Positions 33,582-55,800 of a stretch of DNA of 64,000 nt are shown piece after piece (the first letter of the stretch is position 1; each line of letters starts with the position of its first letter). The stretch lies in IMG/VR virus record IMGVR_UViG_3300034018_003010; one strand, 5' to 3'. The notes beneath the pieces were generated by a model. The model searched no databases, was not told the DNA's origin, and was given only the letters and a program-made list of their open reading frames with translations. Both the position numbers and the translations under genes were made by a program. Source of the stretch: a virus.

Positions 33582-36500
33582 ATGCTAGGCGAATACCCAC
33601 AAATATCATTTAGAGTTCGACCCAAGTTTGATAATTTATATAATTATCCATTACCTGGAACTGATAGGGACCTTTTATGGTATCAACTATCAAAAGCCAC
33701 GGTTTGGGTAGATTATGTACCTTATGCAATGAAACAAGGAGATGAGTTTTCTCTTTATGGATGGCAAGCAATAGATGTTTACACAAGATATATTCTCGAA
33801 ACTCCTTACAAAGATAGAATATTAGAATGGACTTATTTTGGAAACCCTGTAGATTTACCAACAACAGCAAGAATAATATCAGATTTGCCAGCTCCATTTT
33901 GGCTTGTAAATACTAATTACGATTATCAAATACCGATTTCTGGGGGAGCAGCGCCTCTAACATGGTCTATTGCATCTGGATTTCTTCCATATGGAATGTA
34001 TTTAGACGAAATAACAGGAACTATTTATGGAACTCCAGCAATTGCAGACATATATGCATTTACAATAAAGGTAAAAGACAGTTCTCGTCCTCCAGCAATA
34101 GACAGCAGACCGTATTTAATTAGTATTGCTTCTGGCATAATAACGCCAACAGTTTATGAATTTCAAACATCAAACACCACTGCTTCAATATCTGGTGGAA
34201 TTTTAGCAAAATCTACCGCTGGAGATATTGTTTCTTTTTCTCCATTATATTCCACAACAACTCCGTCATCTACAACTATTAATGTTGGCGGAGTGCCTGT
34301 TTTTACAGCAACACATGATGCTTCTTACAATGGAACAACATTTACATTTATTCATAATGGCGTGTCTTATACTGCGACATGGGGATCGACAAATAATTTC
34401 GGAATTGTAACAATTTTAAATACTGGAGTTCCACAATCTATACCAGGTGGAATAACAGCAACAGGAATTGCTACAAATACATTGGCATACAGTCCGACAA
34501 GTGCTACAACAGGCGTTTCTTCGTCTACAGATATAACTATTAATGGAATTCCAGTATTAAACTTAGCTCACGATGCTATTTATAATGGTCAAACACTTAC
34601 ATTTGACTATTTTGGAGTGAAATATACTGCTACATTTGGAACAACAAATAATTTCGTAGGTCCAAATTTAACATACACAATAGGAGCAACAGGAGTTGCA
34701 GAATCTGCTCCTGGTGGAATAACAGCAACTGGCATCGCCACAAATTCAATAACATACACGCCGACAGCATTAACAACAGGAACTCCTTCCAGCACAATTG
34801 TTAATGTAGATGGCGTAAATGTTTTAACTTTAGCTCACGATGCTGTTTATAATGGCCAAACATTTACATTTGACTATTTTGGAGCCACCTACACAGCAAC
34901 TTACGGAATAACAAATAATCTACCAGCCGCTCCTGTAACATATGTAATTCCAACAACTGGAGTTGCAGGATCTGCTCCTGGAAATATTACAGCGACTGGA
35001 ATTGCTACAAATTCTATTTCTTATACTCCAACAAATACAACTACTGGAACTCCTTCTACAACAACAGTAACAATAGGCGGAGCAACTGTTTTAACTTTGG
35101 CTACCGATGCTATTTATAATGGACAAACATTTACATTTGATTATTTTGGAACAACTTATACTGGCACATTTGGAACAACAAATAGCTATCCAACACCTGC
35201 TACAACTACAACAACACCAGTTGCTGCAACTGCTACAATTTCTGCCACTGGCGTTCCGCAAACAATTCCAGGAAATATTACAGCAACTGGAATAATTGGC
35301 AATACCCTTACATATGCTCCAAACACTACAGTAACAGGCGTTACATCCAATACAACTGTTGTAATTGGAACAACAACAGTATTAAGTCTTGCACATGATG
35401 CTATTTATAATGGACAAACATTTACATTTGACTATTTTGGAACAACTTATACTCCAACATTTGGAACAATTAATACATATTCTGCAATACCGACAACTAC
35501 AACTACAACAAGCACAACGTATTCTCCGCCTACAACAACTACAGCAAGTCCTGCTACTACAACAAGTACAACGACAGTTTCTCCAATAACAACAACTACA
35601 ACTACTACAATAGTTCCAACAACAACTACAACTACTACGATAGTTCCAACAACAACTACAACTACTACGATAGTTCCAACAACAACTACAACTACTACAA
35701 TAGTTCCAACAACAACTACAACTACTACAATAGTTCCAACAACAACAACTACAACTACTACAATAATTCCAACAACTACAACTACATCTACTACATCTAC
35801 TACATCTGCTCCTACAACAAGTACTACTACTACAAGCACTACATCTACTACTACATCTACTACCACAAGCACAACTACAAGTACCACAACTACAACAACA
35901 ACTACTACAACTACCACACCAATTCCTTTGTGTTTATCAGATACAGAATCAGTAGTAGTTCTTAATTTGTTTGGACAAAAAGTATACACATTCGGAGGAT
36001 TGCTTGGATTCTTTGGTGTAAACACTGGTGTATATGTATTTACAGATGTTCCATCAACAGAACCACTTGCCTTCTTAAATGCTTCTGTAGCAAATGCTTC
36101 CTACACAGGAACAGTATTGGAATCTGTTGCTGCAGGCCCTGATGGAAACGTTTACAACTTCTACTCTGGCACAGTTACTTTGACTGTCACAGGAACATTC
36201 AATAGATTAAGCTATGCATCTCTTTATGATGGATACATGGGCGGACAAGACAATATTACATTCACAACATATTGTGTTTCTCCAACCACCACAACCACAA
36301 CTACAACTACAACAACCACCACAACAACTACCACCACAACCACAACTACAACAACTACACCGGCTCCAACTACAACAACTACAAGTACAACAACCACTAC
36401 TTCTGCTCCAACTACAAGTACAACAACTACTACTTCTGCTCCAACTACAAGCACAACAACCACTAGTACAACTAGCACTACAAGCACAACAACAACAACT

Positions 36501-39500
36501 GAACCTCCGTTCTATATGTTTGCAACTGGTTTCAATGGTTATGGAACGCTTGCTCAAAGCAATACAACAAATTCAAATGCTCTTCTTTATATTCCATCAA
36601 ATGGAACAGGATGGGCAGATATTTCTCGTTCTCCAGTAGCAAAACACGCTGCTGGAATAGCAGTAGACGGATCTTTGTTTGTGTGGGGCGCTAATGCTTA
36701 TGGAAACATAGGAGATGGTTCTAAAACAGATGCTAGTTCTCCAGTTCAAACATTGGCTGCTGGAACCAACTGGTCTTCTGTTTCAACTGGACTTTGGTTA
36801 ACAGCAGCTATTAATTCTTCTGGAAACCTATGGGTTTGGGGCGCAAATGCTTATGGTCAACTTGGAAATTCATCAACAACAGATCTAAGTTCTCCAATAC
36901 AGCTTGGAACAGATACTACATGGGCAAATATATCTTGTGGATATCAGTTTATGTCTGCTGTAAAAACAGACGGCACACTATGGTCATGGGGTAGAAATCA
37001 ATATGGTCAGCTTGCAACAAATAGCATAACAGATGCTACCTCGCCAGTACAATCAGTCTCTGCATCTACTGACTGGTATGAAACATATGCTTCTAAAGAA
37101 TTCATAATTGGACTAAAGAAAGACGGAACACTTTGGGGTTGGGGAAGAAACTCATATGGACAGCTAGGAACTGGAAACAAACTACCAGTATCTTCGCCAG
37201 TTCAAATAGCAGCAGGATCGACATGGAGTTCGGTATCTGTTGAGTCTGCATCTGTTATAGCAGTAAGAAGCGATAACACATTATGGTCATGGGGAGATAA
37301 CTCTAGTGGTCAATTTGGTAATGGAAATAGAGTAAATGTAAGCTCTCCAATACAAATTGGAGTAGATACAAATTGGTATAGAGTTGGAACTTCTCAAAGC
37401 GCAGTATTTGCTGTAAAGAAGGATGGAACACTATGGTCTTGGGGCGGCAATGCTTCTGGCGAATTGGGCGATAAGACAAATATAAATAGAAGCAGTCCTG
37501 TTCAAATATGTGTATACAATATAGCAACAGAACTAGATTGGGCAAAAATTGGTTCTGCTCAATCCACAATGTATTTGTTGAAGGAAACGATGCCTGTTCC
37601 AACAACAACTACTACTACAACAACTACAACCACAACAACTACTACAACAACTACAACAACTCCTGCTCCGACAACTACCACAACTACTACCACAACAACC
37701 ACTACAACAACCACAACAACGAGCACTACAACAACCACAACTACAAGCACAACCACAACTACATCAACTACAACTCCTGCGCCTATGAATGGCGGAGCAT
37801 TGTGGACATGGGGTTCTGCTCAAAACGGATCTATGGGAGATGGAACAACAGTTCACAGAAGCTCTCCTGTTCAAATTGATGCAAATAAAGTATGGACATC
37901 TGTAATTCCAAGTTCCTCCAACTATAACCTAGGTGTAATAAAGAACAACTACACTCTATGGGTGTGGGGTAGAAACAGCTACGGACAACTAGGATTAAAT
38001 TCAATTGCTGACGCAACAACACCAACAGAAGTTGGCGGATTGTGGTCACAAGCAATGTTTGGATTTAACTTCATGTTAGGAATTAAACTAGATAGCACAT
38101 TGTGGGCATGGGGAGATAATCAATATGGAACAACTTGCACAAATGTTCCAACAAGCACCCCAATTCAAATAGGAACAGAAGCTGCATGGTCTAGCGTATC
38201 TGCTGGAGGAAGCCATGCTTGCGGAATTAAGTCCGATGGAACACTTTGGTCATGGGGCTTGAATGCATGGGGTCAATTAGGACTTGGAGTATTGGGAAGC
38301 AAGCAAAGCCCTGTCCAAGTTGGATCGAATACAACATGGTCTACAATTGCATGTAATCTAAACAACACATTTGCAATTAAGACAGATGGAACATTGTGGG
38401 CTTGGGGATGGAACCTAAATGGTGAATTAGGCTTAGGAGATGTAAAAGGAAAATCTTCGCCAACCCAAGTTGGAACAAATACCACATGGTCAAGCGTAAG
38501 AGCAGGAATATCTAACTCATTGCTAGCAGTAAAGAGCGATGGCACACTATGGGGCGCTGGCAGACTTTATACTAACAATTCTGTTATAAACAGAAGCAGT
38601 CCAGTTCAATTTGGAACAGATACAAATTGGTCTAAGGCAGTTTCTCTTGGAGATAACACAATAGGTGCTATTAAGAGTGATGCCACAATGTGGACATGGG
38701 GCGTAAATGATGATGGAGCAGTACTAGGAACAAACAATGTATTTGATACATCTTCTCCAGTTCAAACAGCCGCAACAAATTACACATGGCTTGATATAGA
38801 TGGATATCTATCTGTTGCTGCTATTTCTGATCTAGAAATAACCACAACAACTACAACAAGTACTACTACTACAAGTACTACAAGCACAACCTCTACAACC
38901 TCTACAACTTCTACAACCTCTACAACTTCTACCACACCTGTTCCTGCATACTTGTATACTACTGGCAATTTTGGAGGATCAGCTTTCCAAAATGATATAG
39001 TTCTTAGAAGCAGTCTAACACAAGTAACATTAGGATCAAATACATGGATTGCAACAGGAACAGGATATATTCAGGGGTGCATGTTCGCAATAGACACACT
39101 TAATAATTTATGGGCTGCTGGCTATAACACTGGATTTGGCAATGCAGGAAAACTTGGAGATGGAACAACCATTAATAGAAGCAGCCCTGTTCAAATTGCT
39201 GGTTCTTGGAACCAAGTATCTGCTAGTCAGAATTCTGCAAGTGCAATTAAAACAGATGGAACACTTTGGGTTTGGGGACAAAACTCTTATGGAACAATAG
39301 GAGATGGAACAAATGTTAATAGAAGCAGTCCTGTTCAAGTATACGGTGGCGGAACATGGACATCTGTGGCAACTGGCTATACAACAACATGGGCTATTAA
39401 GAATGATGGAACACTATGGGGATGGGGAGACAACGATAGCGGAACTCTTTTAAATAAGCCCAGCACACTTAGCCCTGTTCAGCTTGATACAGGATCGTGG

Positions 39501-42500
39501 AAATATATTTACGCAGGAAGAAAATTCCACTTTGGAATAAAACAAGACGGAACATTGTGGGGTGCAGGCTCAAACAGCAACGGACAACTAGGTATTAATA
39601 ATTCGTTCAACACAAGCACTTTGACACAAATCTCAACTGGCGGAACATGGGTAAAAGTTTTTGGAAACTATGATAGTTCAATAGGCTTAAAAACAGATGG
39701 AACAATATGGGCTTGGGGATATAACCGAGTCGGAGTATTTGGAAATAATACGGAAGGACAAAGTGTAAGCAGTCCAGTTCAATCTATTGGAAGTGGCTAT
39801 GTTGATATGAATGGAAATTATGGTGGTGTTGCAGCAATCAAGAGTGATGGAACACTTTGGGCATGGGGATGGAACTCAGAAGGACCATTAGCAGATAAAA
39901 CAAAGGTTCATAGAAGCAGCCCTGTTCAAGTATACAAATTTGGAACAAGTGAAAACAGTTGGGTTAGACTTGGTTCTAGTATAAATGGAGTAACAGCATT
40001 TTCTTCTATAGTTCTTGCTCCTACAACTACAACTACAACTACAACTTCTACAACTACAAGTACAACCACTACAAGCACAACGAGTACAAGCACAACAAGC
40101 ACAACAAGTACAACACCTATTCCTGGCGAATTGTGGCTATGGGGTTCAAATGCAAATGGTGCAACATTACAGAACACAACAGCTGGCAATTCAACTTCGC
40201 CAAAACAAGAATTTACAGCTGATATTACATGGAAAACACCAACTGTAAATAGTGTTCTCACTCTTCCAATCGGAGCATGTATAAAGCAAGATGGAACACT
40301 TTGGACATGGGGTAGAAATGACTTCTATCAACTAGGTACAGGAAATACAATAAATAGAAGCAGTCCAGTTCAAACAGCAATAGGAGGAACAAATTGGGCA
40401 TCAATAGAATTCGGAAGCTCTGCAGCCTTTGCACTAAAAACTGATGGAACTCTATGGGGCTGGGGTAGTAATGGTTATTCTACTTTACTACAACCAAGCA
40501 CATTAACGAATCTATCAACCCCAGTTCAAATATTATCAGGAACAACATGGTCACAAATTGCATGCGGTTTAAATTTTGTTCTTGGTATAAAACCTGGAAA
40601 TACTTTATGGGGATGGGGTCAAAATTTCTATGGTCAGGTTGGAGATGGAACAGAAATAGACAGAAGTTCTCCAGTACAAATAGCAGGATCTTGGAGTTAT
40701 GTAAGCTGCGACTCTGACTCGTCTCTTGGTATCAGAACAGATGGAACACTATGGGGATGGGGTAAAAACAATCCTGGAAAACTCGGGAATATGTCAGAAG
40801 TAAATGCAAGTTCTCCAGTTCAAGTCATTACTGGTGGAACATGGAAAAAAGCTATAGTTATAAGTGAAGTAGCTGCGGGAATAAAAACTGATGGCACTTT
40901 ATGGCTATGGGGGCAAAATTTCGCTGGAGCACTTGGACAAAACGACAAAATTCACAGAAGTTCTCCAGTTCAAGTTATTACTGGAGGAACATGGAGTGAT
41001 ATTGGAATGGGTGTATCTGGTTCCATATGTGGCATAAAAACAGATGGAACATTGTGGGCTTGGGGATGGAACTCATACGGACAAATTGGCGATGGAACCA
41101 CAGTACATAGATCTTCACCAGTTCAAACATTGACAAAAGATAAACTTTGGATGAGACTGCTAAATCAAACATCCACATACGCTGGAGCTATTAGGCAATA
41201 CACTCCTTATGCTCTAAATTATGATGTAAGCACAGCAAGTGTCTCCAATACAACAATTGCAGATATTTCTGGATTAGAAAATAATGGCACAATGACATCT
41301 AGCGCAATGTTTAATCTCGGATGTCCAAATACACTTGGCTTCGATAGCACAAGAGAAATAACAACAACAATTTCTCAAAATAATCCGCAAGTTTACACAT
41401 TGTCTGCTTGGTTTAAAACAACCAGCGCAAGCGGCAAAAAGATTATTGGACACGAAAATGTTCAAACAGGTACTGGAGCCACAAGCTACAGTAGACATCT
41501 TTATATTGGAACAAATGGGCAGCTTTACTTTGCCACATCTGCAAATGGAGCAGGTTATACCATAACATCTTCAACCATAGTTTGTGATGGCGCTTGGCAC
41601 CATGCTGTAATATCTGCAAAATCAGGCGCACAAAGATTGTTTATTGATGGTGTGCTTGTTGGAAGCGATACAAAATCTACCGCAAACCCAGTAGGAGATA
41701 ACAATCCAACTGGCTGGTGGAGAATAGGTGGCTACAAAATAACTGGATGGGCAAACGCTTCGGATGGATACTTCACAGGCGATATAGGAAGAGCCGTAGT
41801 TTACAAGAATGCTTTGACAGATTTAGAAATAACAAGCCTATACGCTGCAGAATTGCCACTATTCAATGTAGCCAAATTTAGCTACACGGGAAGCTTGCAA
41901 ACATGGACAGTTCCAAGTGGAGTTTACAACATCGACGCAACCATAATAGGTGCTAAGGGTGGAGATAACACCACAGGAGGATCTGTTGGTGGTGGTGGCG
42001 CAATCATGTATACAAATATAGATGTAACGCCTGGTCAAACTCTATACTTGGTAGTCGGCGGATATCCTGGCACTAGCGAAACACCTGCTTATGGATTTGG
42101 TGGTGCTGGACAAGCCCCATCTTCAGGACTTCAAAGAACTGGCGCTGCTGGCGGTGGCTTATCTGGCATATTTACAAGTGATTCGTTCATTCCAAGCACA
42201 GTCATAGCTATAGCTGCTGGCGGTGGTGGTGCAAACGGCAGATCATCTGCTACTGGTGGTGGAAACGGTGGCAATCCAACCGGCAGCAACGGTGGAGAAT
42301 ACAATGGCAGCTTTGGAGCAAATGCTGGTTGGGGCGCAAATCAATCACAACCCGGAAACGCCGGTTCGCAATTTGACGGATATGTAACACTCCCACAACA
42401 AGGAGCATATTTGTATGGCGGTGCAGGATCGAAGTTTGAAGGCACCGGCGGAGGAAACCAAGGTGCAGGTGGCGGCGCAGGCTACTACGGTGGCGGTGGT

Positions 42501-42767
42501 GGTGCTTCCGGCGGCGATGCTACTGGCGGTGCTGGCGGTGGCTCAAGCTATTCTGTTGGAAGTGTCACATATGGTCCAGTAGCCAACACATTAGGAAACG
42601 GCAGCATAGTTATTACATACGGCTGCTCATACGCAGTCGGTCAAAATTTGTTGTGGGCATGGGGCGATAACTCTGGCGGAAATCTTGGAGCCGGAAGTGT
42701 ATCAAGCAAATCTTTGCCAATACCCGTTAAATACAACACAACTTGGTCAAATATAGGTGGTGCTTAA
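33582..42767 (+). CDS. giant virion-surface protein (3061 aa): YPQI module, Ig (He_PIG-like), beta-rich repeats, poly-Thr tracts, cupredoxin-like domain, 4 RCC1/BLIP-II propellers, LamG, Gly-rich domain
   Basis: GxLPxG putative Ig motif; IKTDGTLWxWGxNxxGQLG...RSSPVQ repeats in four clusters; LamG and Gly-rich cassette like that of 9397..12126. Confidence 0.85.
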   Translation: MLGEYPQISFRVRPKFDNLYNYPLPGTDRDLLWYQLSKATVWVDYVPYAMKQGDEFSLYGWQAIDVYTRYILETPYKDRILEWTYFGNPVDLPTTARIISDLPAPFWLVNTNYDYQIPISGGAAPLTWSIASGFLPYGMYLDEITGTIYGTPAIADIYAFTIKVKDSSRPPAIDSRPYLISIASGIITPTVYEFQTSNTTASISGGILAKSTAGDIVSFSPLYSTTTPSSTTINVGGVPVFTATHDASYNGTTFTFIHNGVSYTATWGSTNNFGIVTILNTGVPQSIPGGITATGIATNTLAYSPTSATTGVSSSTDITINGIPVLNLAHDAIYNGQTLTFDYFGVKYTATFGTTNNFVGPNLTYTIGATGVAESAPGGITATGIATNSITYTPTALTTGTPSSTIVNVDGVNVLTLAHDAVYNGQTFTFDYFGATYTATYGITNNLPAAPVTYVIPTTGVAGSAPGNITATGIATNSISYTPTNTTTGTPSTTTVTIGGATVLTLATDAIYNGQTFTFDYFGTTYTGTFGTTNSYPTPATTTTTPVAATATISATGVPQTIPGNITATGIIGNTLTYAPNTTVTGVTSNTTVVIGTTTVLSLAHDAIYNGQTFTFDYFGTTYTPTFGTINTYSAIPTTTTTTSTTYSPPTTTTASPATTTSTTTVSPITTTTTTTIVPTTTTTTTIVPTTTTTTTIVPTTTTTTTIVPTTTTTTTIVPTTTTTTTTIIPTTTTTSTTSTTSAPTTSTTTTSTTSTTTSTTTSTTTSTTTTTTTTTTTTPIPLCLSDTESVVVLNLFGQKVYTFGGLLGFFGVNTGVYVFTDVPSTEPLAFLNASVANASYTGTVLESVAAGPDGNVYNFYSGTVTLTVTGTFNRLSYASLYDGYMGGQDNITFTTYCVSPTTTTTTTTTTTTTTTTTTTTTTTTTPAPTTTTTSTTTTTSAPTTSTTTTTSAPTTSTTTTSTTSTTSTTTTTEPPFYMFATGFNGYGTLAQSNTTNSNALLYIPSNGTGWADISRSPVAKHAAGIAVDGSLFVWGANAYGNIGDGSKTDASSPVQTLAAGTNWSSVSTGLWLTAAINSSGNLWVWGANAYGQLGNSSTTDLSSPIQLGTDTTWANISCGYQFMSAVKTDGTLWSWGRNQYGQLATNSITDATSPVQSVSASTDWYETYASKEFIIGLKKDGTLWGWGRNSYGQLGTGNKLPVSSPVQIAAGSTWSSVSVESASVIAVRSDNTLWSWGDNSSGQFGNGNRVNVSSPIQIGVDTNWYRVGTSQSAVFAVKKDGTLWSWGGNASGELGDKTNINRSSPVQICVYNIATELDWAKIGSAQSTMYLLKETMPVPTTTTTTTTTTTTTTTTTTTTPAPTTTTTTTTTTTTTTTTTSTTTTTTTSTTTTTSTTTPAPMNGGALWTWGSAQNGSMGDGTTVHRSSPVQIDANKVWTSVIPSSSNYNLGVIKNNYTLWVWGRNSYGQLGLNSIADATTPTEVGGLWSQAMFGFNFMLGIKLDSTLWAWGDNQYGTTCTNVPTSTPIQIGTEAAWSSVSAGGSHACGIKSDGTLWSWGLNAWGQLGLGVLGSKQSPVQVGSNTTWSTIACNLNNTFAIKTDGTLWAWGWNLNGELGLGDVKGKSSPTQVGTNTTWSSVRAGISNSLLAVKSDGTLWGAGRLYTNNSVINRSSPVQFGTDTNWSKAVSLGDNTIGAIKSDATMWTWGVNDDGAVLGTNNVFDTSSPVQTAATNYTWLDIDGYLSVAAISDLEITTTTTTSTTTTSTTSTTSTTSTTSTTSTTSTTPVPAYLYTTGNFGGSAFQNDIVLRSSLTQVTLGSNTWIATGTGYIQGCMFAIDTLNNLWAAGYNTGFGNAGKLGDGTTINRSSPVQIAGSWNQVSASQNSASAIKTDGTLWVWGQNSYGTIGDGTNVNRSSPVQVYGGGTWTSVATGYTTTWAIKNDGTLWGWGDNDSGTLLNKPSTLSPVQLDTGSWKYIYAGRKFHFGIKQDGTLWGAGSNSNGQLGINNSFNTSTLTQISTGGTWVKVFGNYDSSIGLKTDGTIWAWGYNRVGVFGNNTEGQSVSSPVQSIGSGYVDMNGNYGGVAAIKSDGTLWAWGWNSEGPLADKTKVHRSSPVQVYKFGTSENSWVRLGSSINGVTAFSSIVLAPTTTTTTTTSTTTSTTTTSTTSTSTTSTTSTTPIPGELWLWGSNANGATLQNTTAGNSTSPKQEFTADITWKTPTVNSVLTLPIGACIKQDGTLWTWGRNDFYQLGTGNTINRSSPVQTAIGGTNWASIEFGSSAAFALKTDGTLWGWGSNGYSTLLQPSTLTNLSTPVQILSGTTWSQIACGLNFVLGIKPGNTLWGWGQNFYGQVGDGTEIDRSSPVQIAGSWSYVSCDSDSSLGIRTDGTLWGWGKNNPGKLGNMSEVNASSPVQVITGGTWKKAIVISEVAAGIKTDGTLWLWGQNFAGALGQNDKIHRSSPVQVITGGTWSDIGMGVSGSICGIKTDGTLWAWGWNSYGQIGDGTTVHRSSPVQTLTKDKLWMRLLNQTSTYAGAIRQYTPYALNYDVSTASVSNTTIADISGLENNGTMTSSAMFNLGCPNTLGFDSTREITTTISQNNPQVYTLSAWFKTTSASGKKIIGHENVQTGTGATSYSRHLYIGTNGQLYFATSANGAGYTITSSTIVCDGAWHHAVISAKSGAQRLFIDGVLVGSDTKSTANPVGDNNPTGWWRIGGYKITGWANASDGYFTGDIGRAVVYKNALTDLEITSLYAAELPLFNVAKFSYTGSLQTWTVPSGVYNIDATIIGAKGGDNTTGGSVGGGGAIMYTNIDVTPGQTLYLVVGGYPGTSETPAYGFGGAGQAPSSGLQRTGAAGGGLSGIFTSDSFIPSTVIAIAAGGGGANGRSSATGGGNGGNPTGSNGGEYNGSFGANAGWGANQSQPGNAGSQFDGYVTLPQQGAYLYGGAGSKFEGTGGGNQGAGGGAGYYGGGGGASGGDATGGAGGGSSYSVGSVTYGPVANTLGNGSIVITYGCSYAVGQNLLWAWGDNSGGNLGAGSVSSKSLPIPVKYNTTWSNIGGA
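35490..35920 (+). repeat. poly-Thr tract including 30-bp tandem repeat (IVPTTTTTTT, about 5 copies)
   Basis: ATAGTTCCAACAACAACTACAACTACTACR units from about 35610. Confidence 0.9.
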
Positions 42768-45700: not shown

Positions 45701-46524
45701 CGGGAGGAAGTCTAACTACTAGCCTTGGTACTAGTAGAGCTGGAAATGGAGGTTCAATAACAGGAAAACTAACAGTTACACCGGGTGTGACATATAGAAT
45801 TGTTGTTGGCAAATCAGGAGACTGGTCTTCTGGTTCGACTGCGCCATACGGATATGCCGGAAGTTTTTCTAATGCGGTAAATACAGGCATAACAGGATCT
45901 GTCGGAGCTTTTGGCGGAGGATTAGCAGGAATATTTGCAACTAGCGTTAGTCGAGCAAACGCTTTGTTAGTAGCTGGTGGTGGTGGTGGTGGACAAAGAC
46001 TGAATATTTATAACTGTTCAAGCCCTCTTGTTACTCAAAATTTCCAGGAAACAGGATGGGGGGCTGTAGGAAGTGGACCTGGAGGGTCTGGAAGAGCAGT
46101 AAATAATTATACTTCATGCGTAAACACAAGCACAAGAAATGGCGGAACTTTAACAGCTAACGGTGTAGGAACAGCTGGTATTATAGCTGGTGGTAGTGCT
46201 AGTGCTAGTGGATTGACAGGAGGAACAGGAATTGGATATTCCTCATATACTGATGGTTTGTCAGGAACTAATGTGCTATGGATGACGGGAGGAAGTGGTG
46301 GTGCTGGATATTATGGTGGAGCAGGTTCTACTTTAGTTTGTGCTAGTTATTATGATCCAGGTGGTTGTGGAGCCCCTCCTCCTTCCCGATGGGTTAGTGG
46401 CAGCGGCATCATTCCTTCTGGAGGAGGCTCAAGCTATTCCGCTGACGCTAATAGCGGACATGCATTCAGTAACAATGGCACCGCTCCTTGGGGATTTAAT
46501 GGATATGTTGTAATTTGTTACTAA
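42769..46524 (+). CDS. RCC1-repeat, LamG and Gly-rich protein; continuation of the upstream gene in the +1 frame
   Basis: Begins mid RCC1 repeat. ATG 42769 lies 1 nt after the upstream TAA, with AGGTGG 8 nt upstream (ORF track start is GTG 42757). Confidence 0.8.
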   Translation: MSTQACSYGIDSSGNLFSWGPNGYGTIGNQSVVTKAIPTPTLGTDYSSILTSSLSVFAQKTDGTIWCWGKNTNGQLGLSNVIHRSSPVFFSASGVWSKIENGYSNSLGIKTDGSLWAWGRNDAGQLGTNNTIHRSSPVLVSNTGTWVDVSCDYYSSYGVKSDGTLWAWGTGYNFAWGNGTNVATIVPGRSSMVQIGTATDWSNVSTVYGLGGIALKKDGTLWSWGQGSAGKNGNNSMMTASSPTQVIGSGYAYVKSSWYTVLAKKSDNTYWIWGQTWDGSSSTSVNRSSPVQVAGSNFRNLSFSKLNVVGNGWPAFYGIAPVPPIVTTTSTTTTSTTSTTPAAEQGFLVWGNNTDGVLGIGDTVHRSRGVQLGTDSQWNSGRVLNYSTSGSNHTLITKWDGSLWGCGNNTYGQIGDGTLVHRSSPVQITGAWANAVSGAFYTVGVKTDGSIWAWGRSIDGSLGTNFGAGDQYYPYRIGLDYTWSGNPAHLDASRHVAAIKTNGTLWAWGYNGLGQLGNGTIAHRSSPTQIGTETTWAQVSVGGAVTSPYQSHTIAVKSDGTAWAWGANSSGQLGNNSIIHRSSPVQVLGTGYKYVKAGFGFSLAVKTNGSLWGWGDYNYSGTNYTPLNYANRSSPVQLLGTTSWSTNLSGFDTKYISSVGLNSTGPQNLWNWGSGTDGALYQISNVANIFSPLDSTSYPSGLNRTWSSAYQGYQRGAAGALVSLSAFGLIADWDPRNYVSGTTWTDASGTGNNATISNTDLQNGFVFRNEYSGYFAETSTAGYLSNSFLYYYGTYGEPIYITGTKAYYYSDDVRDQSFEIWARLKPSNTTESIATVGPFTLRLNYDQLVVTLNGTTIITPASKYTDWMFHQFTVTNTGTTTKLYVDGSLVSTATNSGLYTSGGYLSLGTTSCHLAKFRAWYGVVRTDAEILADYNSWKAIANYPVLTTRNTYSYTGSDQTWTCPAGVTSIYATAIGATGGSLTTSLGTSRAGNGGSITGKLTVTPGVTYRIVVGKSGDWSSGSTAPYGYAGSFSNAVNTGITGSVGAFGGGLAGIFATSVSRANALLVAGGGGGGQRLNIYNCSSPLVTQNFQETGWGAVGSGPGGSGRAVNNYTSCVNTSTRNGGTLTANGVGTAGIIAGGSASASGLTGGTGIGYSSYTDGLSGTNVLWMTGGSGGAGYYGGAGSTLVCASYYDPGGCGAPPPSRWVSGSGIIPSGGGSSYSADANSGHAFSNNGTAPWGFNGYVVICY

Positions 46525-46550: not shown

Positions 46551-46580
46551 AATTCCCAGCCTAGGCTGGGAATTTTTTTT
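46551..46580 (+). terminator. rho-independent terminator
   Basis: Palindrome AATTCCCAGCCT-AGGCTGGGAATT running into a T tract. Confidence 0.85.
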
Positions 46581-46588
46581 AAATGGCG

Positions 46589-46596
46589 AATAAATA
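46589..46596 (+). promoter_or_regulatory. late promoter-like AATAAATA, 6 nt before ATG
   Basis: TAAATA at 46591-46596, then CTTATT-ATG, directly after a terminator; no SD. Confidence 0.65.
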
Positions 46597-46602: not shown

Positions 46603-49600
46603 ATGACAGGCGAATACCCACAAATCACATTCCGTGTAAAACCAGTTTTTACAAACCTTTATAACTATCCACTACCAGGGACTGATAGAGTTCAGACTTG
46701 GTATCAATTAGAAGATGGGGCAATTTGGGTTGATTATGTGCCTTATAGATTAAGAAGTGGAAATTCTTTTAATTTATATGGAGCACAAGCTTTAGATGTT
46801 TATACAAGATATATTTTAAAAACTATACCAGGCGATAGAATATTAGAATTTGATTATTTTGGAAAAGTAATAGATAATTCTTCAAATTTAGTAATTTTAA
46901 ATGATGTTTTGCCAACTGGAGCTGCATTTGTTCCATATAGTAAAATACTTCAAACACAAAATACAAGCCAACCTTTAGAATGGAAAATAACATCTGGAAA
47001 ACTTCCATTAGGAATGTATTTAGATTCTTCTACTGGAGAACTTTATGGAACCCCATTAGTATCTGGAATGTATCCATTTACAATAAGTCTGACAGATAGT
47101 TCTATTCCGCCAATTTATGATAGCAGGCCATATTTATTAAGAATTGCTTCAAGTTCAACAACAACAGTTCCTACACAAATACAGCAAAATGGAGTTCAAA
47201 CAGCACTTCCCGGCGGAGTTGTTGCTGTTGGATCTGCGGGAGATGTTTTAACCTATACAACAAATTATACTGTTGGAAACACGACTACAACAACAGTTAC
47301 TATTCTAGGAAATTTAGCATTAACTTTAACTCATTCTGATTCTTATAACGGACAAACATTTACATATGTTCACCAAGGAATAACATATATTGGTACATTT
47401 GGAGCCGCAAACGTATTTGGTGTTGTAACAACAACAACAACTCCTGCCCCAACAGTTTTTGTAATTACTTCTACTGGAACTCCTTTGAGTGCTCCAGGAA
47501 ATTTAACGGTTACAGGAATTGCAACAAATACTTTAACATATACAGCTATTAACACAACAACTGGATCTACATGCACAACAACAGCTTCAATTAGTGGAAT
47601 AAATGTTTTAACTATTTCTAATGATGTAATTTATAGCGGACAGCAGTTCTCATTTAACTATTTTGGAACAATTTATACTGGAACTTTTTGCATAAATAAT
47701 ACATTTTTACCAACTACAACAACTAGCACAACAACTCCAAATCCTTTATTTACAACAACCACCACAACAACTACTACAACTACTAGCACAACAACCACTA
47801 CTACTACAACCACAACTACTACTACTGCATCTCCAGCAACAACCACTAGCACAACCACTGCATCTCCAGTAACCACCACCACTACTACAACTATTGTTCC
47901 AGTAACTACAACTACAACTACTACAATAGTTCCAGTAACAACTACTACAACTACTACAACTATTGTTCCAGTAACTACAACAACAACCACCACAATAGTT
48001 CCAGTAACTACAACAACTAGCACAACTAGTGCTCCAACAACCAGTACAACTAGTGCTCCAACAACTACTACAACTATTGCCCCAACAACTACTACAACTA
48101 GTGCCCCAACAACCAGCACTACAACTAGCGCTCCAACAACCAGCACTACAACTAGCGCTCCAACAACAACCAGTAGCACAACTAGCACAACAACAACGCC
48201 AATTCCTTCATGCTTATCAAGTACTCAATCAGTAATAGTAATAAACTGGTCTGGACAAAACACATATGTATTTGGTGGCACAATTGGATTCTTTGGCGTA
48301 AATACTGGTGTTTATCAATTTACAAGCGTACCTTCTACACATCCAATAGCATTCTTAAACAACTCCATAGGAAATGTTTCTTACACAGGAACTGTTCTTG
48401 CAGGATCTGGAATAGCCCCAGATGGAAACACTTATAACTTCTACTCTGGAACTGTAACTTTAACTGTAACAGGTTCTTTTGGCAGATTAAGCTATGCTTG
48501 CTTGAATCACGGCTACATGGGTGGCCAAGACAATATAACATTCACAACATATTGTGTGTCTCCAACCACAACTACTACAACCACACCAGTTCCAACTACA
48601 ACCACTACTACAACTACGCCCTCACCTACTACCACAACAACCACCACAACAACCACAACAACCACCACAACAACACCCGCACCTACTACAACAACCACTA
48701 CAACCACAACTACTTCAACCACAACTACTTCAACCACCACCACGCCAGCACCTACCACAACAACCACTTCAACCACAACAACCACAACTACTACAACAAC
48801 ACCAGCTCCTACAACTACTAGTACAACCACTTCTACCACTACAACATCAGCACCTACTACCACAACCACAACTACAACCACTTCAACCACAACTACAACA
48901 ACCACTACAACAACACCAGCACCTACTACCACAACAACAACTACAACCACAACTACTACAACAACACCAGCACCTACTACCACAACAACTACTACAACAA
49001 CCACTACAACAACACCAGCACCTACTACCACAACTACTACTACAACTACCACGTCAACATCTACTACAACAACTACAACCGATGTACCTTCTGGATCTTT
49101 ATATTTAATGGGATTGAATGGAAGCGGTCAGATAGGAGATGGAACTGCTATAAGCAGAAGCATTCCGACTCAAGTGTTGGGTTCAGGAGCATGGAAAATA
49201 TTAGGAGATAATGGATATTCAACATCAGTATTTAATGCAGGCATTAAAAATGATAACACTTTGTGGTTATGGGGAAATGGCAATTACATAGCACAGAATT
49301 CAAATGTAGGCAATAAATCTTCTCCAGTTCAAATATATGGCGGAGGCACATGGACTGATGTCGCCCAAACATACCGTACCGGAGCGGCTGTAAAATCAGA
49401 TGGCACTTTATGGACATGGGGAGATAACTATTGGGGAGCTATAGGTCGCTATGGGCTAGCTTACAACAGCTTTATTTATTCGCCTGTACAAACAACTCTA
49501 GGCGGAAGCACATGGAGCAAAGTTGCTGGTGGATATGGTCAAGTATTTGCAATAAAAACTGATGGAACACTATGGGCTTGGGGCGCAAATGGAGGCGGAA

Positions 49601-52446
49601 CTCTTGGACTTGGATTTGTTGGCGGACAAGGATATGGAGGCATGTTTTCCCCAGTTCAAGTAGGAACAGATACAACATGGAAAATGGTTGGATCACTTTA
49701 TGCTGGTGGAATTGCAATCAAACAAGACAATACATTATGGATATGGGGAAATAATAACAATGGTCAGTTAGGACAAGGAAATATCATAAACAGAAGCTCG
49801 CCTGTTCAAGTTGGAACAGGAACAGATTGGGCTTTTGTCCCAAAAACAGCATCGGGAATAACTAGCTCTGCTTTTGCAATTAAAAATGATGGTTCTCTTT
49901 GGGGTTGGGGCGGAAACAACAGTGGGCAATTAGCTCAAAATAACACAGCAGATATAAGCTCTCCTGTTCAAATTACTGGTACATGGAGCAAAGTAACCTA
50001 CAACCGTTCTGTTATAGGACTAAAAACAGATGGAAGCTTATGGGCTTGGGGACATAACTCATATGGCACCATAGGAGATAACACAAAGATACATAGAAGC
50101 TCTCCAGTGCAAACAACTCTTGCAGATACAAACTGGATAAATGTTGTTGGATTTGGTGGAATTAGAGCTACAACCACATCTACTACAACTACATCTACTA
50201 CAAGTACATCTACAACATCCACTACATCAACAACACAGGCTCCTGGTGCGCTATATACATGGGGCTATAGACATCTTGGATCTTCAGGGGATAATAATAA
50301 CACTGTAATATATCAGTCTCCAACACAAATAATTGATGCAAGTCAATACCAAGATTTGCCACCTAACACGAGTGGATACGGATCATGTTTTGCCATAAAA
50401 CCAGATGGAACATTATGGGCTTGGGGATTGAACTCTTATTATGGAGCACTTGGAGATGGAACATTAGAAAATAGATCTTCACCTATTCAAATCACCTCAA
50501 ATACATGGAATATGGTATCTTCAAGTTCGCTTGCAACTCTTGCTATAAAATCTGATAATACATTGTGGGGATGGGGAGGCGGAGCATTCCTGCCCAACAA
50601 TTCTAATACTAGCTATAGCTCTCCCATACAAATTGGAACAGATACATGGAGATATGTTAATACTGGAGGACAAACCGGGGCAGGAATAAAAACAGATGGT
50701 ACTTTGTGGCTTTGGGGAGGCAATCAGAATGGACAACTTGGCAATAATCAGGTATCATATAATACGCAAAGTTCTCCAACACAAACAGTTGCTGGAGGAA
50801 ATAATTGGATTTTTGTTAATGTTAGTGGCGATGGGGTTGTTCATGCCATAAAATCTGATACAAATTTATGGGCTTGGGGGAATAATTCTTGGGGGCAAAT
50901 TGGAAACAATACTAGTTATGTAAGTTATTCAAGTCCTATACAAATAGGAGCATCTGGTTGGGCTTATGTAAGCTCAACCAAATATCATGTACTTGCTGTA
51001 AAAACCAATGGCACATTATGGGCATGGGGTTATAATGCCTATGGAATTTTAGGTTTAAATACAGATACTCCTTATTCAGGGGTTAGCTCTCCTATCCAAG
51101 TAGGAACAGACACAAATTGGAAAAAGTCTACTGCTCTAGACTATTCATCCGCAGCAACAAAAACGGATGGCACATTATGGGCATGGGGTTCAAATTATTA
51201 TAACCAAACTGGAAACCCATATGCAGGATACGCACTTTCATCTCCAATACAAACATTAGCAAATGATAATTTATGGATTGATATATCTGGTAATAGTTAT
51301 GGAGTTTATGCAACTAGAAGTGCTGGATATGTAGCTACTACACCTTCGCCTACGACTAGCACTACTACAACGACTCCACAACCAGGAAGTTTATTAGGAA
51401 TGGGAGTTAATTCTTATGGTCAAATTGGGAATAACACAACAAATTCACAATCTTTCCCAACACAAGAAATTACAAATTCATCATGGTCAAAATTACCAAG
51501 TGGCAGCTATCTTTATTCCGCTTATGTAGGCATGGGCGGAATAAAAACAGATGGCACTCTTTGGACATGGGGATATATTTGGGATTCTGGTTCTATTGTT
51601 CACAGGTCTTCTCCTGTACAAATAAGTACAGGTGGAACATGGACAGATTTTTCAATATCTGGTTATTCAGTTAATGCTGTTAAGTCTAATGGAACATTGT
51701 GGGCGTGGGGACAATTACCAGGAAACAGTAATAACTCTAGCCCAACACAAATTGGAACAGACACAGACTGGAAATATGTGTTTAGAAATTCATATGTTTC
51801 TGCTGCAATTAAAAATGATGATACTGCATATTTATGGGGATCCGATATATCTTATGGATTATTTGGTGACAATACAGCAACTAATTCATCTAAATTAATA
51901 CCGACACAAACAATAACTGGTTCTTGGAAGATGATTGTTGGTGGCAATGCTATGTTTGGAATAAAAACAGATGGAACATTATGGTCTTGGGGATACAATG
52001 CCTATGGACGACTTGGATTAAATGATACAATAAACAGAAGTTCTCCAACACAAATAAGCGGGTCTTATACATATGTTTCATCAGATGGATATAGTGTATA
52101 TATGGCTGTAAAATCTGATGGAACATTATGGGGATGGGGCAACGGACAATCTATAATAAATGCTATAGCTTTCAATGGTGGTTTCTATCAATATCAAGGT
52201 TATAGTTCTCCAATTCAACTATTTTCATCAACAGGATGGACCAAAGTACTTGGTTTTAATGATAGTTCAATTGCTTTGAAATCAGATGGAACAGCATGGA
52301 CATGGGGATATAATAGGTATGGACTGGCTGGAAATGGCAAGATAGTTCCATTCTACGCATCTACATATAGTCCTGTGCAGGTAAACTATACCGGCTGGTC
52401 AGATATTTACTCCAATAGAGATACAAACTTTGGATTGTTTAATTGA
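46603..52446 (+). CDS. giant virion-surface protein (1947 aa), paralog of 33582..42767: YPQI module, Ig, poly-Thr, cupredoxin-like domain, 3 RCC1 propellers
   Basis: Collinear N-terminal similarity (GEYPQI.FRV.P.F.NLYNYPLPGTDR); HPIAF...YACLNHGYMGG; RCC1 repeats. Confidence 0.85.
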   Translation: MTGEYPQITFRVKPVFTNLYNYPLPGTDRVQTWYQLEDGAIWVDYVPYRLRSGNSFNLYGAQALDVYTRYILKTIPGDRILEFDYFGKVIDNSSNLVILNDVLPTGAAFVPYSKILQTQNTSQPLEWKITSGKLPLGMYLDSSTGELYGTPLVSGMYPFTISLTDSSIPPIYDSRPYLLRIASSSTTTVPTQIQQNGVQTALPGGVVAVGSAGDVLTYTTNYTVGNTTTTTVTILGNLALTLTHSDSYNGQTFTYVHQGITYIGTFGAANVFGVVTTTTTPAPTVFVITSTGTPLSAPGNLTVTGIATNTLTYTAINTTTGSTCTTTASISGINVLTISNDVIYSGQQFSFNYFGTIYTGTFCINNTFLPTTTTSTTTPNPLFTTTTTTTTTTTSTTTTTTTTTTTTTASPATTTSTTTASPVTTTTTTTIVPVTTTTTTTIVPVTTTTTTTTIVPVTTTTTTTIVPVTTTTSTTSAPTTSTTSAPTTTTTIAPTTTTTSAPTTSTTTSAPTTSTTTSAPTTTSSTTSTTTTPIPSCLSSTQSVIVINWSGQNTYVFGGTIGFFGVNTGVYQFTSVPSTHPIAFLNNSIGNVSYTGTVLAGSGIAPDGNTYNFYSGTVTLTVTGSFGRLSYACLNHGYMGGQDNITFTTYCVSPTTTTTTTPVPTTTTTTTTPSPTTTTTTTTTTTTTTTTPAPTTTTTTTTTTSTTTTSTTTTPAPTTTTTSTTTTTTTTTTPAPTTTSTTTSTTTTSAPTTTTTTTTTSTTTTTTTTTTPAPTTTTTTTTTTTTTTPAPTTTTTTTTTTTTTPAPTTTTTTTTTTSTSTTTTTTDVPSGSLYLMGLNGSGQIGDGTAISRSIPTQVLGSGAWKILGDNGYSTSVFNAGIKNDNTLWLWGNGNYIAQNSNVGNKSSPVQIYGGGTWTDVAQTYRTGAAVKSDGTLWTWGDNYWGAIGRYGLAYNSFIYSPVQTTLGGSTWSKVAGGYGQVFAIKTDGTLWAWGANGGGTLGLGFVGGQGYGGMFSPVQVGTDTTWKMVGSLYAGGIAIKQDNTLWIWGNNNNGQLGQGNIINRSSPVQVGTGTDWAFVPKTASGITSSAFAIKNDGSLWGWGGNNSGQLAQNNTADISSPVQITGTWSKVTYNRSVIGLKTDGSLWAWGHNSYGTIGDNTKIHRSSPVQTTLADTNWINVVGFGGIRATTTSTTTTSTTSTSTTSTTSTTQAPGALYTWGYRHLGSSGDNNNTVIYQSPTQIIDASQYQDLPPNTSGYGSCFAIKPDGTLWAWGLNSYYGALGDGTLENRSSPIQITSNTWNMVSSSSLATLAIKSDNTLWGWGGGAFLPNNSNTSYSSPIQIGTDTWRYVNTGGQTGAGIKTDGTLWLWGGNQNGQLGNNQVSYNTQSSPTQTVAGGNNWIFVNVSGDGVVHAIKSDTNLWAWGNNSWGQIGNNTSYVSYSSPIQIGASGWAYVSSTKYHVLAVKTNGTLWAWGYNAYGILGLNTDTPYSGVSSPIQVGTDTNWKKSTALDYSSAATKTDGTLWAWGSNYYNQTGNPYAGYALSSPIQTLANDNLWIDISGNSYGVYATRSAGYVATTPSPTTSTTTTTPQPGSLLGMGVNSYGQIGNNTTNSQSFPTQEITNSSWSKLPSGSYLYSAYVGMGGIKTDGTLWTWGYIWDSGSIVHRSSPVQISTGGTWTDFSISGYSVNAVKSNGTLWAWGQLPGNSNNSSPTQIGTDTDWKYVFRNSYVSAAIKNDDTAYLWGSDISYGLFGDNTATNSSKLIPTQTITGSWKMIVGGNAMFGIKTDGTLWSWGYNAYGRLGLNDTINRSSPTQISGSYTYVSSDGYSVYMAVKSDGTLWGWGNGQSIINAIAFNGGFYQYQGYSSPIQLFSSTGWTKVLGFNDSSIALKSDGTAWTWGYNRYGLAGNGKIVPFYASTYSPVQVNYTGWSDIYSNRDTNFGLFN
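47710..49080 (+). repeat. two long ACN-codon (poly-Thr/Pro) low-complexity tracts flanking the cupredoxin-like domain
   Basis: ACA/ACT/ACC runs at about 47710-48200 and 48563-49080. Confidence 0.9.
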
Positions 52447-52498: not shown

Positions 52499-52533
52499 AA
52501 AAACCTCTAGAGATAGTTCTCTGGGGGTTTTTT
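52499..52533 (+). terminator. rho-independent terminator
   Basis: AAAAACCTCTAGAGA-TAGT-TCTCTGGGGGTTTTTT stem with G-U pairs and a T tail. Confidence 0.7.
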
Positions 52534-52553
52534 GCTTAAAGCATATATATTTT

Positions 52554-52826
52554 ATGTCAAATTCATATCCACAAATTACATTTTTAGTAGACCCAGATAT
52601 TTCTGAAATTGATTCTTATTCAATGCCAGATGTGAATAGAGAAAATCTTGTTTATCAATTAAATTCAAAGATATATTGGATTGAAAATTTTTCTTATAGT
52701 GTAAAAAAAGGAGATTCTTTTACATTGTATGGAGAAGAAGCACTAAGAGTTTATAAAAATTATATACAAAACAATACAAATGGAAATATTTTAAAAGTAA
52801 CATATTATGGTGTTCCAGAAATTTAA
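52554..52826 (+). CDS. stand-alone YPQI module protein (90 aa)
   Basis: MSNSYPQITF...YQL....WI....Y..K.GD.FTLYG.EAL.VY..YI......L...YYG aligns to the N-termini of three giant neighbours. ATG 52554 preferred because TTG 52470 lies upstream of the terminator. Confidence 0.8.
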   Translation: MSNSYPQITFLVDPDISEIDSYSMPDVNRENLVYQLNSKIYWIENFSYSVKKGDSFTLYGEEALRVYKNYIQNNTNGNILKVTYYGVPEI

Positions 52827-52880: not shown

Positions 52881-52888
52881 GATAAATA
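52881..52888 (+). promoter_or_regulatory. late promoter-like GATAAATA, 5 nt before ATG
   Basis: TAAATA at 52883-52888, then AAATT-ATG; no SD. Confidence 0.6.
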
Positions 52889-52893: not shown

Positions 52894-55800
52894 ATGGCAC
52901 AAGATTATCCACAAATAACATTCGTTGTAAACAATGTAAATATGCAGGAAATTTTAAAATATCCTCCTGTAGATCAAAATTATGACAATGTCATAAATCT
53001 ATTAAAACAAACTACATTTTGGATTTTATATGTTCCATATGAATTAAGACATGAAGATTGCTTTACACTTTATGGAAAAGAAGCTTTAGAAGTTCAAAAA
53101 ATTTATATAACAGACGTACAAGAAAACCTAAGAAAACTTGAAATAGGTTACTATGGCATACCAACAACTGATTGCACATGCAAATGCTTAATACAAACAG
53201 ATCCAGCAAGCATAAATATTCAGCAGGTTGGCACCTCTTTATCGGTAGCAATGTCAGCTACTGGTGGCAAATCTCCTTATACATATTCTCTTGATTCTGG
53301 AGTTTTTCCTCCTGGTGTAACCATTTCTTCAACTGGAGTTATAAGTGGAACACCGACTGCTTCAGGGTCTTACGAATTTTCTATTTTAGTAAGTGATGGA
53401 ATTAACAGCGCAATAAAAACTTATAGAATAAAAGTAAAACCTCTAATCGCATTTGCACCCGCATCATTGCCAGCAACAACTCAATCTATTGCTTATAATC
53501 AAACAGTTACAGCATCTGGCGGACTTGCTCCATATGCATACAGTATTATTTCAGGATCATTGCCAACTGGATTGAGTCTAAATTCAGCAACTGGAGCCAT
53601 TACTGGAACTCCTACAACTCCAGGAACTTATAATTTCACTATAGAAGCAACCGATGGAAACAGTGATATAGGTAGCAAAGCATATACAGTAACAATAAAT
53701 AATCCTGTATTAATATCTACAGCAACACTGCCAGACACAACGGAAGGGGAAGTATATAGCCAAACTGTTTCTTCAACAGGAGGAACAGGAGCTGTAACAT
53801 TCTCCGTTTCTTCTGGTTCTTTGCCAACAGGACTAAGCCTAAATGCTGCAACAGGAGTAATAAGCGGAACTGTTACTGTAGCCGGAACTTATAATTTCAC
53901 AATAACAGGAACTGATACAGTAGGAGCAACAGGAAACAAAGCCTACTCTGTTGTTATAAATCCACCAGTAGCGGTTACTCCCTCAACTTTACCAGACACA
54001 ACAATAACAATACCATATTCACAAACAGTAACTGCGACTGGCGGCACAGGCACAAAGACATATGCAGTAACATTTGGATCTTTACCAACAGGACTAAGCT
54101 TAAATACCGCTACCGGACTAGTAAGCGGAACTCCAATTACTGCAGGTCTTTACAATTTTGCCATAACAGCAACCGACACAGTAGGAGCAACGGGAAATAC
54201 TATTTATAATGTAAATATTAATCCTGCCATAACATTAGCTCCAGCAACTCTACCAGCAACAACAGAAAATGTAGCTTATAGCCAAACTGTCACAGCATCT
54301 AACGGAACTGGAACAAAGACATATACATTATCTTCTGGTTCTTTGCCAACAGGACTAAGCTTAAACGCCGCAACAGGTGTTATAAGTGGCACACCTACTG
54401 CTGCTGGAAGCTATACTTTTGATATAACAGCAACAGATACTGTGGGGGCAACAGGAACAATAACTTACACAACAACAATAAATGCAGCCATGACTATGGC
54501 TCCAGCTTCTTTGCCAACAACAACACAAGGAGTTGCTTATAACCAAACTGTTACAGCATCTAATGGCACAGGAGCAAAGACATATACTGTAACCTCTGGA
54601 AGCTTACCAACAGGACTAAGCCTAAATGCTTCAAGCGGTGCAATAACAGGAACTGCAACTGCTGCTGCTACTTACAACTTTACAATTACAGCCACAGATA
54701 CTGTAGGCGCAACTGTAAGTCAGCCATACACAGTATTAGTAAATGTTCCACTTTCAATATCTCCTGCAACTCTACCAGATACAACAATAAATGTTGCTTA
54801 CAGCCAAACAATAACAGGAACAGGTGGAACTGCTCCTCTTGCTTATTCAGTATCTGCTGGTTCTTTGCCAGCAGGATTAAGTATAAATGCCACAACGGGG
54901 GCAATAACTGGAACTCCAACTGCAACAGGCGCTTCGAGTTTCACAATTACTGTAACAGACGCAAATGGTGCGACAGCAAGCCAAGCATATACAGTAACAA
55001 TTAATGCTGCAGTTACAGTATCTCCAGCAACTCTACCAGATACAACAATAAATGTTGCATACAGTCAAACAGTATCCGCTTCTAATGGAACAGGAGCTAA
55101 GACATTCTCAGTAACTTCTGGTTCTCTACCAACAGGATTAAGCTTAAACGGTGCATCTGGTGTTATAAGTGGAACACCAACGGCTACAGGAACATCTAAT
55201 TTCACAATTACAGCTACAGATACAGTAGGAGCAACAGGAAGTCAAGCTTATACCGTTGTTATAAACCCAGCAGTTTCAATTACAACTGCAACTCTACCAG
55301 ATACAACAATAAATGTTGCTTACAACCAAACCGTTGCTGCAACAGGTGGTACAGGAGCAAAGACATTCTCAGTAACTTCTGGAAGCTTACCAACAGGATT
55401 AACCTTAACAGGCGCCTCTGGTGTTATAAGCGGAACTTCTACTGCTGCAGCAACATACAACTTCACAGTCACAGCTACCGATACAGTAGGAGCAACAGGA
55501 AGCCAAGCCTATAGCGTTGTTGTAAGCGGAGCTCTTTCAATATCTCCTGCAACATTACCAGACACAACAATAAATACTGCTTACAGTCAGACAATAACAG
55601 CATCAGGTGGAACAGCTCCTATTACTTATTCTGTTTCTGCTGGTTCATTGCCAACTGGCTTAAGCCTAGATGCCAATACTGGTGTAATAAGCGGAACTCC
55701 AACAAGTGCTGCGACATCAAACTTTACAATTACAGCTACAGATGCTTCTTTGGCAACAGCAAGCCAAGCTTACTCAGTCACAATAAACCCAGCTATTTCT

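Follow-up and report, generated by a model that had tools for sequence, protein, structure and literature searches.

What joins genes that carry entirely different cargo under one common N-terminus, and what might that N-terminus do? This question is raised by a 64,000-nucleotide stretch of the virus record IMGVR_UViG_3300034018_003010, which belongs to a huge T4-like phage that has not been cultivated (the window, meaning the whole stretch of DNA analysed; its genes are named here by their first position), in which four genes begin with the same module of ~88 amino acids (aa). A sequence-only reading of this DNA had taken the module for a possible common N-terminal tag that docks alternative giant appendages at equivalent sites of the virion. 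Our analysis identified a well-delimited new domain, for which a role in attachment to the phage particle is plausible.

A shared module at the start of four genes

The products of genes 33582, 46603, 52554 and 52894 all open with x-x-x-YPQI(T/S)F and remain alignable over ~88 residues. Of the 90 alignment columns, 22 are invariant, including Y5, P6, Q7, I8, F10, V12, Y22, L36, W42, Y48 and F56 in the first part and L58, Y59, G60, A63, V66, Y70, I71, L81, Y85 and G87 in the second. Pairwise identity between the copies ranges from 33 to 66% (66, 39 and 36% to the first copy), with BLAST E-values between 1e-16 and 1e-62. A hidden Markov model (HMM) built from the four copies and searched against all six frames of the window recovered its source copies at E 4e-50 to 4e-44; a fifth copy was not found, the next match lying at E 0.15. 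All four modules are under purifying selection, as judged by Nei–Gojobori ω against their orthologs in a close relative, G008 (Table 1); these values are rough because dS is ~0.8–1.2. Translations, alignment, BLAST and HMM thus confirmed that the YPQI(T/S)F module is common to the four genes.

A domain scan likewise bore out the earlier account of the cargo as RCC1/LamG arrays, an RCC1 array, nothing, and 13 immunoglobulin (Ig)-like repeats. The three long genes share the module together with one He_PIG Ig domain (~166 aa aligned by BLAST), and genes 33582 and 46603 are paralogous further on, with alignment of their first ~195 aa; P0005 and P0006, truncated relatives of these two genes, can be aligned by eye over ~300 aa. 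Residues 113–182 of the gene 33582 product match major tail proteins of actinophages at their Ig ends. Beyond this region, gene 33582 encodes RCC1/RLD arrays and a LamG domain near aa 2524–2722, the latter confirmed by comparison with gene 9397, to whose LamG_3 domain it is 38.6% identical.

The module itself could not be assigned to a known family. Pfam-A and PHROG scans of the four copies returned nothing credible, the sole weak match (E 0.007) being to an unrelated anti-repressor family, and a profile search of PDB sequences gave no matches at E up to 10. AlphaFold2 (AF2) modelled the module with medium confidence (pLDDT 73.7 with four sequences, 75 with a 35-sequence alignment). In the latter model it is predicted to be α/β, with strands at residues 7–12, 40–42, 49–51, 55–59 and 80–86, helices at residues 17–20, 26–37 and 60–72, and the element order β1-α-α1-β2-β3-β4-α2-β5. 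In Foldseek searches of PDB and BFVD, nothing matched with an E-value of 0.001 or below. VIA-align against 48,161 representative chains gave at best a procarboxypeptidase pro-domain (Z 4.3, root-mean-square deviation 4.3 Å, 67 residues), with HMA, ACT and ribosomal α/β sandwiches tied just below. A fold re-check (Foldseek/VIA) yielded Z 4.2, and ESM Atlas scores of at most 0.84 were uninformative. The model thus suggests a generic ferredoxin-like sandwich without an informative relative, in agreement with the sequence-only reading, which had not recognised the domain.

In homologs, Pro/Thr-rich linkers frequently begin directly past module residue ~89, so the boundary is well defined. Because such linkers start right after this residue, and because the module also occurs as a 90-aa gene of its own, we conclude that it is an autonomous, previously undescribed domain.

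Family size, architectures and copy number

The module belongs to a wider family. When 1.84 billion representative proteins were searched with a profile, 80 clusters matched at E 1e-3 or better and 33 of these also at E 1e-10 or better; a search of 90%-identity clusters gave 59 short members, all annotated as "hypothetical" and some located on contigs of up to 229 kb. Scanning IMG/VR with the four-copy alignment gave no match and scanning with a 10-sequence alignment did give loci; in all, we retrieved 16 module loci from IMG/VR and 23 from JGI metagenomes. Five IMG/VR contigs that were checked measure 80–168 kb and are only 18–39% complete according to CheckV, which implies genomes of ~400–500 kb, the size of huge phages. 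DNA of the window region had no match among phage records. Without exception, the family's members derive from contigs of uncultivated phages, for the most part pieces of huge phages.

The module is a rare family restricted to phages. Every located copy lies on viral or metagenome contigs, and among 185,579 prokaryotic species genomes scanned for its pattern only a single metagenome-assembled genome (MAG), which bears the label "uncultured Acidimicrobiaceae bacterium", contained it. Contigs of this MAG that total at least 406 kb are collinear with the window phage. Because two of them, C5 (135.6 kb) and C1 (271 kb), follow the window at 73–83% nucleotide identity, this DNA is probably mis-binned and represents G008, the close relative used above for the ω estimates. 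Another T4-like phage is represented in the MAG as well (C57 among its contigs).

Among 119 unique modules, 54 are N-terminal, 36 stand alone (in proteins of 135 aa or less), 15 are C-terminal and 14 are internal. The locus L010 illustrates this range, with a 442-aa RCC1 protein carrying the module at residues 364–441, a 336-aa protein carrying it at 259–335, and an 84-aa stand-alone copy; in L002, a 499-aa protein has the module at residues 201–284, followed by a LamG-type domain. The description of the module as an N-terminal tag was therefore not upheld, since 29 of the 119 are C-terminal or internal and 36 occur alone. Its Pfam partners comprise He_PIG, RCC1/RLD, Laminin_G_3 (LamG_3), PKD, cadherin, DUF5122 propeller, GH43/BNR and legume-lectin domains. 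In several family members, P0036, P0037, P0040, P0029, P0054, P0060 and P0073, two more unrecognised domains flank the module, one N-terminal with "...FTNQYPGLFVMGADKI..." and the other C-terminal with "...IYIF.N..YVDYV..PG...".

Module genes form clusters of two or three, often beside a stand-alone copy, as seen in the window, in L009-13, L017/18, L019/20/27, L028-30 and L031-34, and twice in G004. In a maximum-likelihood tree, which rests on 90 columns and is weakly resolved, the four window copies fall into one 11-row clade with their relatives, each with its own near-ortholog (P0005-P0008). Paralogous modules of one lineage group together, as expected if modules track one lineage-specific partner. 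An origin of all stand-alone copies in one ancient clade was rejected, as at least seven state changes are forced on well-supported branches.

G008 has exactly four module copies. Its ortholog of the 90-aa window gene encodes 329 aa, consisting of the module, a He_PIG domain, a poly-Thr stretch and a C-terminal domain of ~100 aa. At this position the window is shorter by ~730 nucleotides (nt) and holds no counterpart of the C-terminal domain. Judged from this comparison, the cargo-less gene of the window is a derived, recent truncation, because the ortholog is intact in G008. The truncated gene has been retained: P0008, a 90-aa homolog with the same end, is 85% identical to it, and ω against G008 is 0.25. 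It is possible, as the sequence-only reading proposed, that the cargo-less copy fills spare sites; given the 329-aa ortholog, such filling would not be a designed feature of the set.

Genomic setting and possible role

Each of the four module genes is preceded, 4–6 nt before its ATG, by an ATAAATA or ATATATA box (Table 1), and boxes of similar kind lie upstream of genes 9397, 19928 and 24596. The T4 late promoter has the sequence TATAAATA, which the ATAAATA boxes resemble. This resemblance and the position of the boxes suggest that the module genes are expressed as late, nearly leaderless transcripts. No Shine-Dalgarno sequence precedes any of the four, and several small neighbouring genes have GGAGG-type sites. 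Of the two terminator-like hairpins in the region, a simple terminator scan picked up the one at 46551 and not the one at 52499. Gene 42769, which encodes an RCC1 array, is likely translated together with gene 33582, because its ATG follows immediately on the stop codon of that gene; the two products may be partner subunits.

Upstream of the module genes, the window encodes giant fibre-like proteins that match phrog_892 ("tail fiber") or phrog_32822 and phrog_8510 ("virion structural protein"). Small LamG proteins, glycosyltransferases and a methyltransferase are encoded there too, and the genes immediately upstream of gene 33582 include those for two glycosyltransferases and for the methyltransferase. 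Among 148 neighbouring open reading frames (ORFs) at 14 loci, the commonest Pfam families are GT2 (nine ORFs) and S-adenosylmethionine-dependent methyltransferases (at least six). A putative GT-A-like gene, whose product has its best PDB match at only E 0.38 and whose enzyme identity is therefore tentative, lies downstream of the module genes in the window and runs convergent to a module gene, with a 3-nt gap, in L028/29, L031/33/34 and L023/25/32. It is ~70% identical across lineages whose modules share only ~35–40%, which may reflect either a conserved locus or a functional link to the module proteins.

A different N-terminal unit is shared by genes 19928 and 24596 (aa 1–170 against 1–199, 34% identity, E ~1e-18 to 1e-22), where it precedes Ser-Gly repeat bodies. 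This unit may be another attachment module, one that serves a second fibre set.

Table 1. Coordinates of the module copies and associated features (window positions unless a locus or accession is given).
Feature	Position	Strand	Details
Module copy 1	33582..33848	+	aa 1-89 of 3061-aa gene; HMM E 3.9e-50; ω 0.07
Module copy 2	46603..46869	+	aa 1-89 of 1947-aa gene; ω 0.21
Stand-alone module gene	52554..52826	+	90 aa; ω 0.25
Module copy 4	52894..53163	+	aa 1-90 of 1524-aa gene; ω 0.15
Giant gene: module, He_PIG Ig, RCC1-like propeller arrays, LamG	33582..42767	+	3061 aa
RCC1-array gene without module	42769..46524	+	ATG 1 nt after TAA of gene 33582; junction at 42765-42771
Gene: module, He_PIG Ig, RCC1-like propeller arrays	46603..52446	+	1947 aa
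Gene: module, 13 He_PIG Ig-like repeats	52894..57468	+	1524 aa from ATG; ORF listed from 52876
ATAAATA box	33569..33575	+	6 nt before ATG of gene 33582
ATAAATA box	46590..46596	+	6 nt before ATG of gene 46603
ATATATA box	52543..52549	+	4 nt before ATG of stand-alone gene 52554
ATAAATA box	52882..52888	+	5 nt before ATG of gene 52894
Intrinsic terminator, hairpin and T-run	46551..46574	+	-15.8 kcal/mol; ends 33582/42769 transcription unit
Strong terminator-like hairpin and U-run	52499..52532	+	between gene 46603 and stand-alone gene; -20.4 kcal/mol, z -5.9
Putative GT-A-like gene, ~290 aa	58217..59119	-	750 nt downstream of module gene
GT-A-like relatives	L029:10627-11502, L031:11368-12246, L032:1777-2655, L025:1982-2671
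N-terminal unit of genes 19928 and 24596	19928..20440 and 24596..25190		sequence comparison
MAG phage contigs (loci L041/L042/L043, L046-L050)	GenBank CAYVOK010000005.1 and CAYVOK010000001.1

A positional hint to the capsid came from L004, a 7.2-kb IMG/VR contig in which positions 292–6058 hold, on one strand, a portal-sized gene, a gp21-like head maturation protease gene, a gene in scaffold position, a gp23-like major capsid protein (MCP) gene and, directly after the latter, a gene for a 297-aa product composed of the module and LamG. The MCP gene of L004 lies at 3605–5032 and that of G008 at 31781–32992 of contig C5, and their products are 81% identical; the lineage has a gp23-type MCP. In G008, an unrelated 383-aa gene holds the position after the MCP. 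A PDB sequence search gave no match for the product of this gene or for the module-LamG protein of L004, and the head genes of L004 were not found in the ±10 kb flanks of the other module loci.

From these sequences, the most economical reading is that of a modular adaptor with interchangeable adhesin-type cargo. We tentatively propose, at somewhat less than an even chance, that the module tethers this cargo to a repeated virion site of huge T4-like phages. The adhesin-like cargo, the several paralogs per genome, the late-promoter-like boxes and the order of genes in L004 fit this proposal best. We infer that the module proteins are virion components from the boxes and the neighbouring fibre-like genes, and that the module is their attachment end. 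By analogy with Hoc, our leading guess for the bound site is the gp23-type capsid hexamer, with the neck or baseplate as an alternative. The module would act as an independently folding α/β adaptor that holds its cargo on the virion non-covalently, and the cargo (RCC1 propellers, He_PIG, PKD and cadherin Ig-type repeats, LamG and lectin domains) would bind glycans or surfaces. Paralogs of one genome would share one class of site, or compete for it, and so give a mixed coat of appendages, in which cargo-less copies, arising repeatedly by truncation, would occupy sites without adding a fibre. A bolder version, which we regard as rather doubtful, would make the module an anchor unrelated to Hoc and usable at either protein end, with giant adhesins and truncated "blank" anchors competing to form a tunable, rapidly evolving mosaic coat.

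Several observations weigh against a virion anchor. Neither the Pfam, PHROG, PDB and fold searches nor an hhalign comparison with Hoc matched the module, in sequence or in fold, to a known anchor, and a tblastn search with three family members found no carrier among 50,697 isolate phage records. Putting cargo of 3061 aa onto capsid sites numbering in the hundreds would come at a very high cost. The adjacency to the MCP is a single case, that of L004, and in G008 the MCP lies ~87 kb from the module cluster, with a weak gp19-like tail-tube match ~25 kb off on the other side. In most of the other phages, the neighbours of the module are non-structural (sigma factor, DNA polymerase, carbamoyltransferases, methyltransferases and glycosyltransferases).

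Part of the evidence would also suit other roles. Tight gene clusters with fused and stand-alone copies side by side, found in many lineages, and paralogs that are closest to each other within a lineage are compatible with an oligomerisation or branching domain, whose copies, including the cargo-less ones, would bind each other to build one branched, multi-headed appendage akin to the branched complexes that receptor-binding proteins form in Klebsiella phages or CBA120. The predicted ferredoxin-like sandwich belongs to a fold class that often pairs via its sheet, and systems branched via conserved N-terminal parts are known (PMC6872550). We nevertheless consider such branching unlikely, as a single copy occurs on some long contig fragments (G001, 145 kb; G003, 109 kb) and a coiled-coil or trimerisation signature is absent. 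The prominence of GT2, other glycosyltransferase families and methyltransferases among the neighbours, including those just upstream of gene 33582, together with the convergent GT-A-like gene in three other lineages and the Pro/Thr tracts that often adjoin the module, could instead mark it as a recognition handle or acceptor for phage glycosyl- or methyl-transferases that decorate these linkers or the cargo. Such enzymes are, however, abundant throughout genomes of this type, the GT-A-like neighbour may reflect shared synteny only, and stand-alone modules and He_PIG-only cargo offer no linker to modify, so that we give a handle function a small chance.

The non-structural neighbourhoods of L002, L010 and other loci would be in keeping with proteins that are not virion parts at all and work inside the infected cell or on its surface, for instance in envelope remodelling or superinfection exclusion. 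We hold this improbable, given cargo domains typical of extracellular adhesins and phage fibres, the placement of the window copies within a fibre-like gene block behind late-promoter-like boxes, and the lack of any signal peptide or membrane segment noticed by eye in the four N-termini. A gp21-like protease is present in the lineage and many copies have an "ILE" or "LE" motif in their last strand, from which one might derive an N-terminal capsid-targeting propeptide, cut by a T4-type prohead protease at (I/L)xE near the module end. The Glu of this motif is not conserved, being replaced in ILK of the stand-alone copy and its ortholog and in KLV of the G008 He_PIG ortholog, and the position of the module varies, with the 29 C-terminal or internal cases noted above; a protease-removed propeptide is disfavoured on these grounds. 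For internal head proteins, the cargo is also much too big and too much like adhesins, which leaves this the least credible role and a very improbable one.

For the common anchor of alternative appendages put forward in the sequence-only reading, the logic of a modular adaptor thus stands, with an autonomous domain and interchangeable adhesin cargo, while its restriction to the N-terminus and the designed blank do not. If the module is a true virion anchor, it offers a way to study how huge phages that have not been cultivated fix very large, diverse appendages to their surface, and would define a new domain family of ~80 clusters, all of them now annotated as "hypothetical". If it instead joins proteins together or marks them for glycosylation, it would still be a common organising element of a fast-evolving set of adhesin genes.

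Comparison with known anchors

Conserved N-terminal anchor and branching domains are known from phages with multiple receptor-binding proteins, such as Klebsiella phages, and include T4gp10-like domains (PMC6872550). In such a phage, several different distal receptor-binding parts have in common a conserved proximal part, which attaches them to the tail or to one another; the module genes likewise combine a shared part with different cargo. As a rule such anchors sit at the N-terminus, and their families are known, whereas the module is without a Pfam or PHROG match and also occurs C-terminally, internally and alone.

Phage T5's decoration protein pb10 consists of a small autonomous N-terminal anchor, formed by a five-helix bundle, a linker and an Ig domain, and related vibriophages encode cargo-less, single-domain versions of this anchor (PMC5292684). 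The module resembles it as a small autonomous unit with cargo-less forms. It differs in its predicted α/β fold, the pb10 anchor being all-α with an F-G-x2-L-P motif that is absent from the module alignment, and the Pfam and PDB sequence searches gave no match between the two.

The closest parallel in organisation is Hoc. Its capsid-binding domain is an α/β domain of ~90 aa that sits at either terminus, has in some phages several paralogs bearing different cargo, a GDSL lipase for example, and binds the centre of gp23-type hexamers; its fold is a four-stranded sheet under a three-helix bundle, in the order β1-β2, helices, β3-β4 (PMC10385173). The module is likewise a domain of ~90 residues, predicted to be α/β, joined to a string of Ig-like domains, N- or C-terminal and present as several paralogs per genome, and in T4 the head genes are closely followed by hoc, a position that the module-LamG gene has in L004. 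The two differ in predicted architecture, with β-α-α-β-β-β-α-β and 5–6 strands plus three helices in the module (AF2, pLDDT 75), and in cargo, which here reaches 3000 aa and includes RCC1 propellers. Nor did a sequence relation emerge: comparing the 35-sequence alignment of the module with T4 Hoc in hhalign gave a probability of 0.1% (E 0.55), on which we rejected homology. No Hoc chain was among the matches listed in the fold searches, made with a model of medium confidence, and T4 Hoc as a single query had no match in G008, which is not conclusive for that genome. The analogy to Hoc drawn in the sequence-only reading therefore holds for the logic of the system, with use at either terminus, several paralogs and other cargo, and fails as common descent. 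If the proposed anchoring is right, the module could be used as a small tag for the display of large cargo on phage particles, a use already made of Hoc and pb10.

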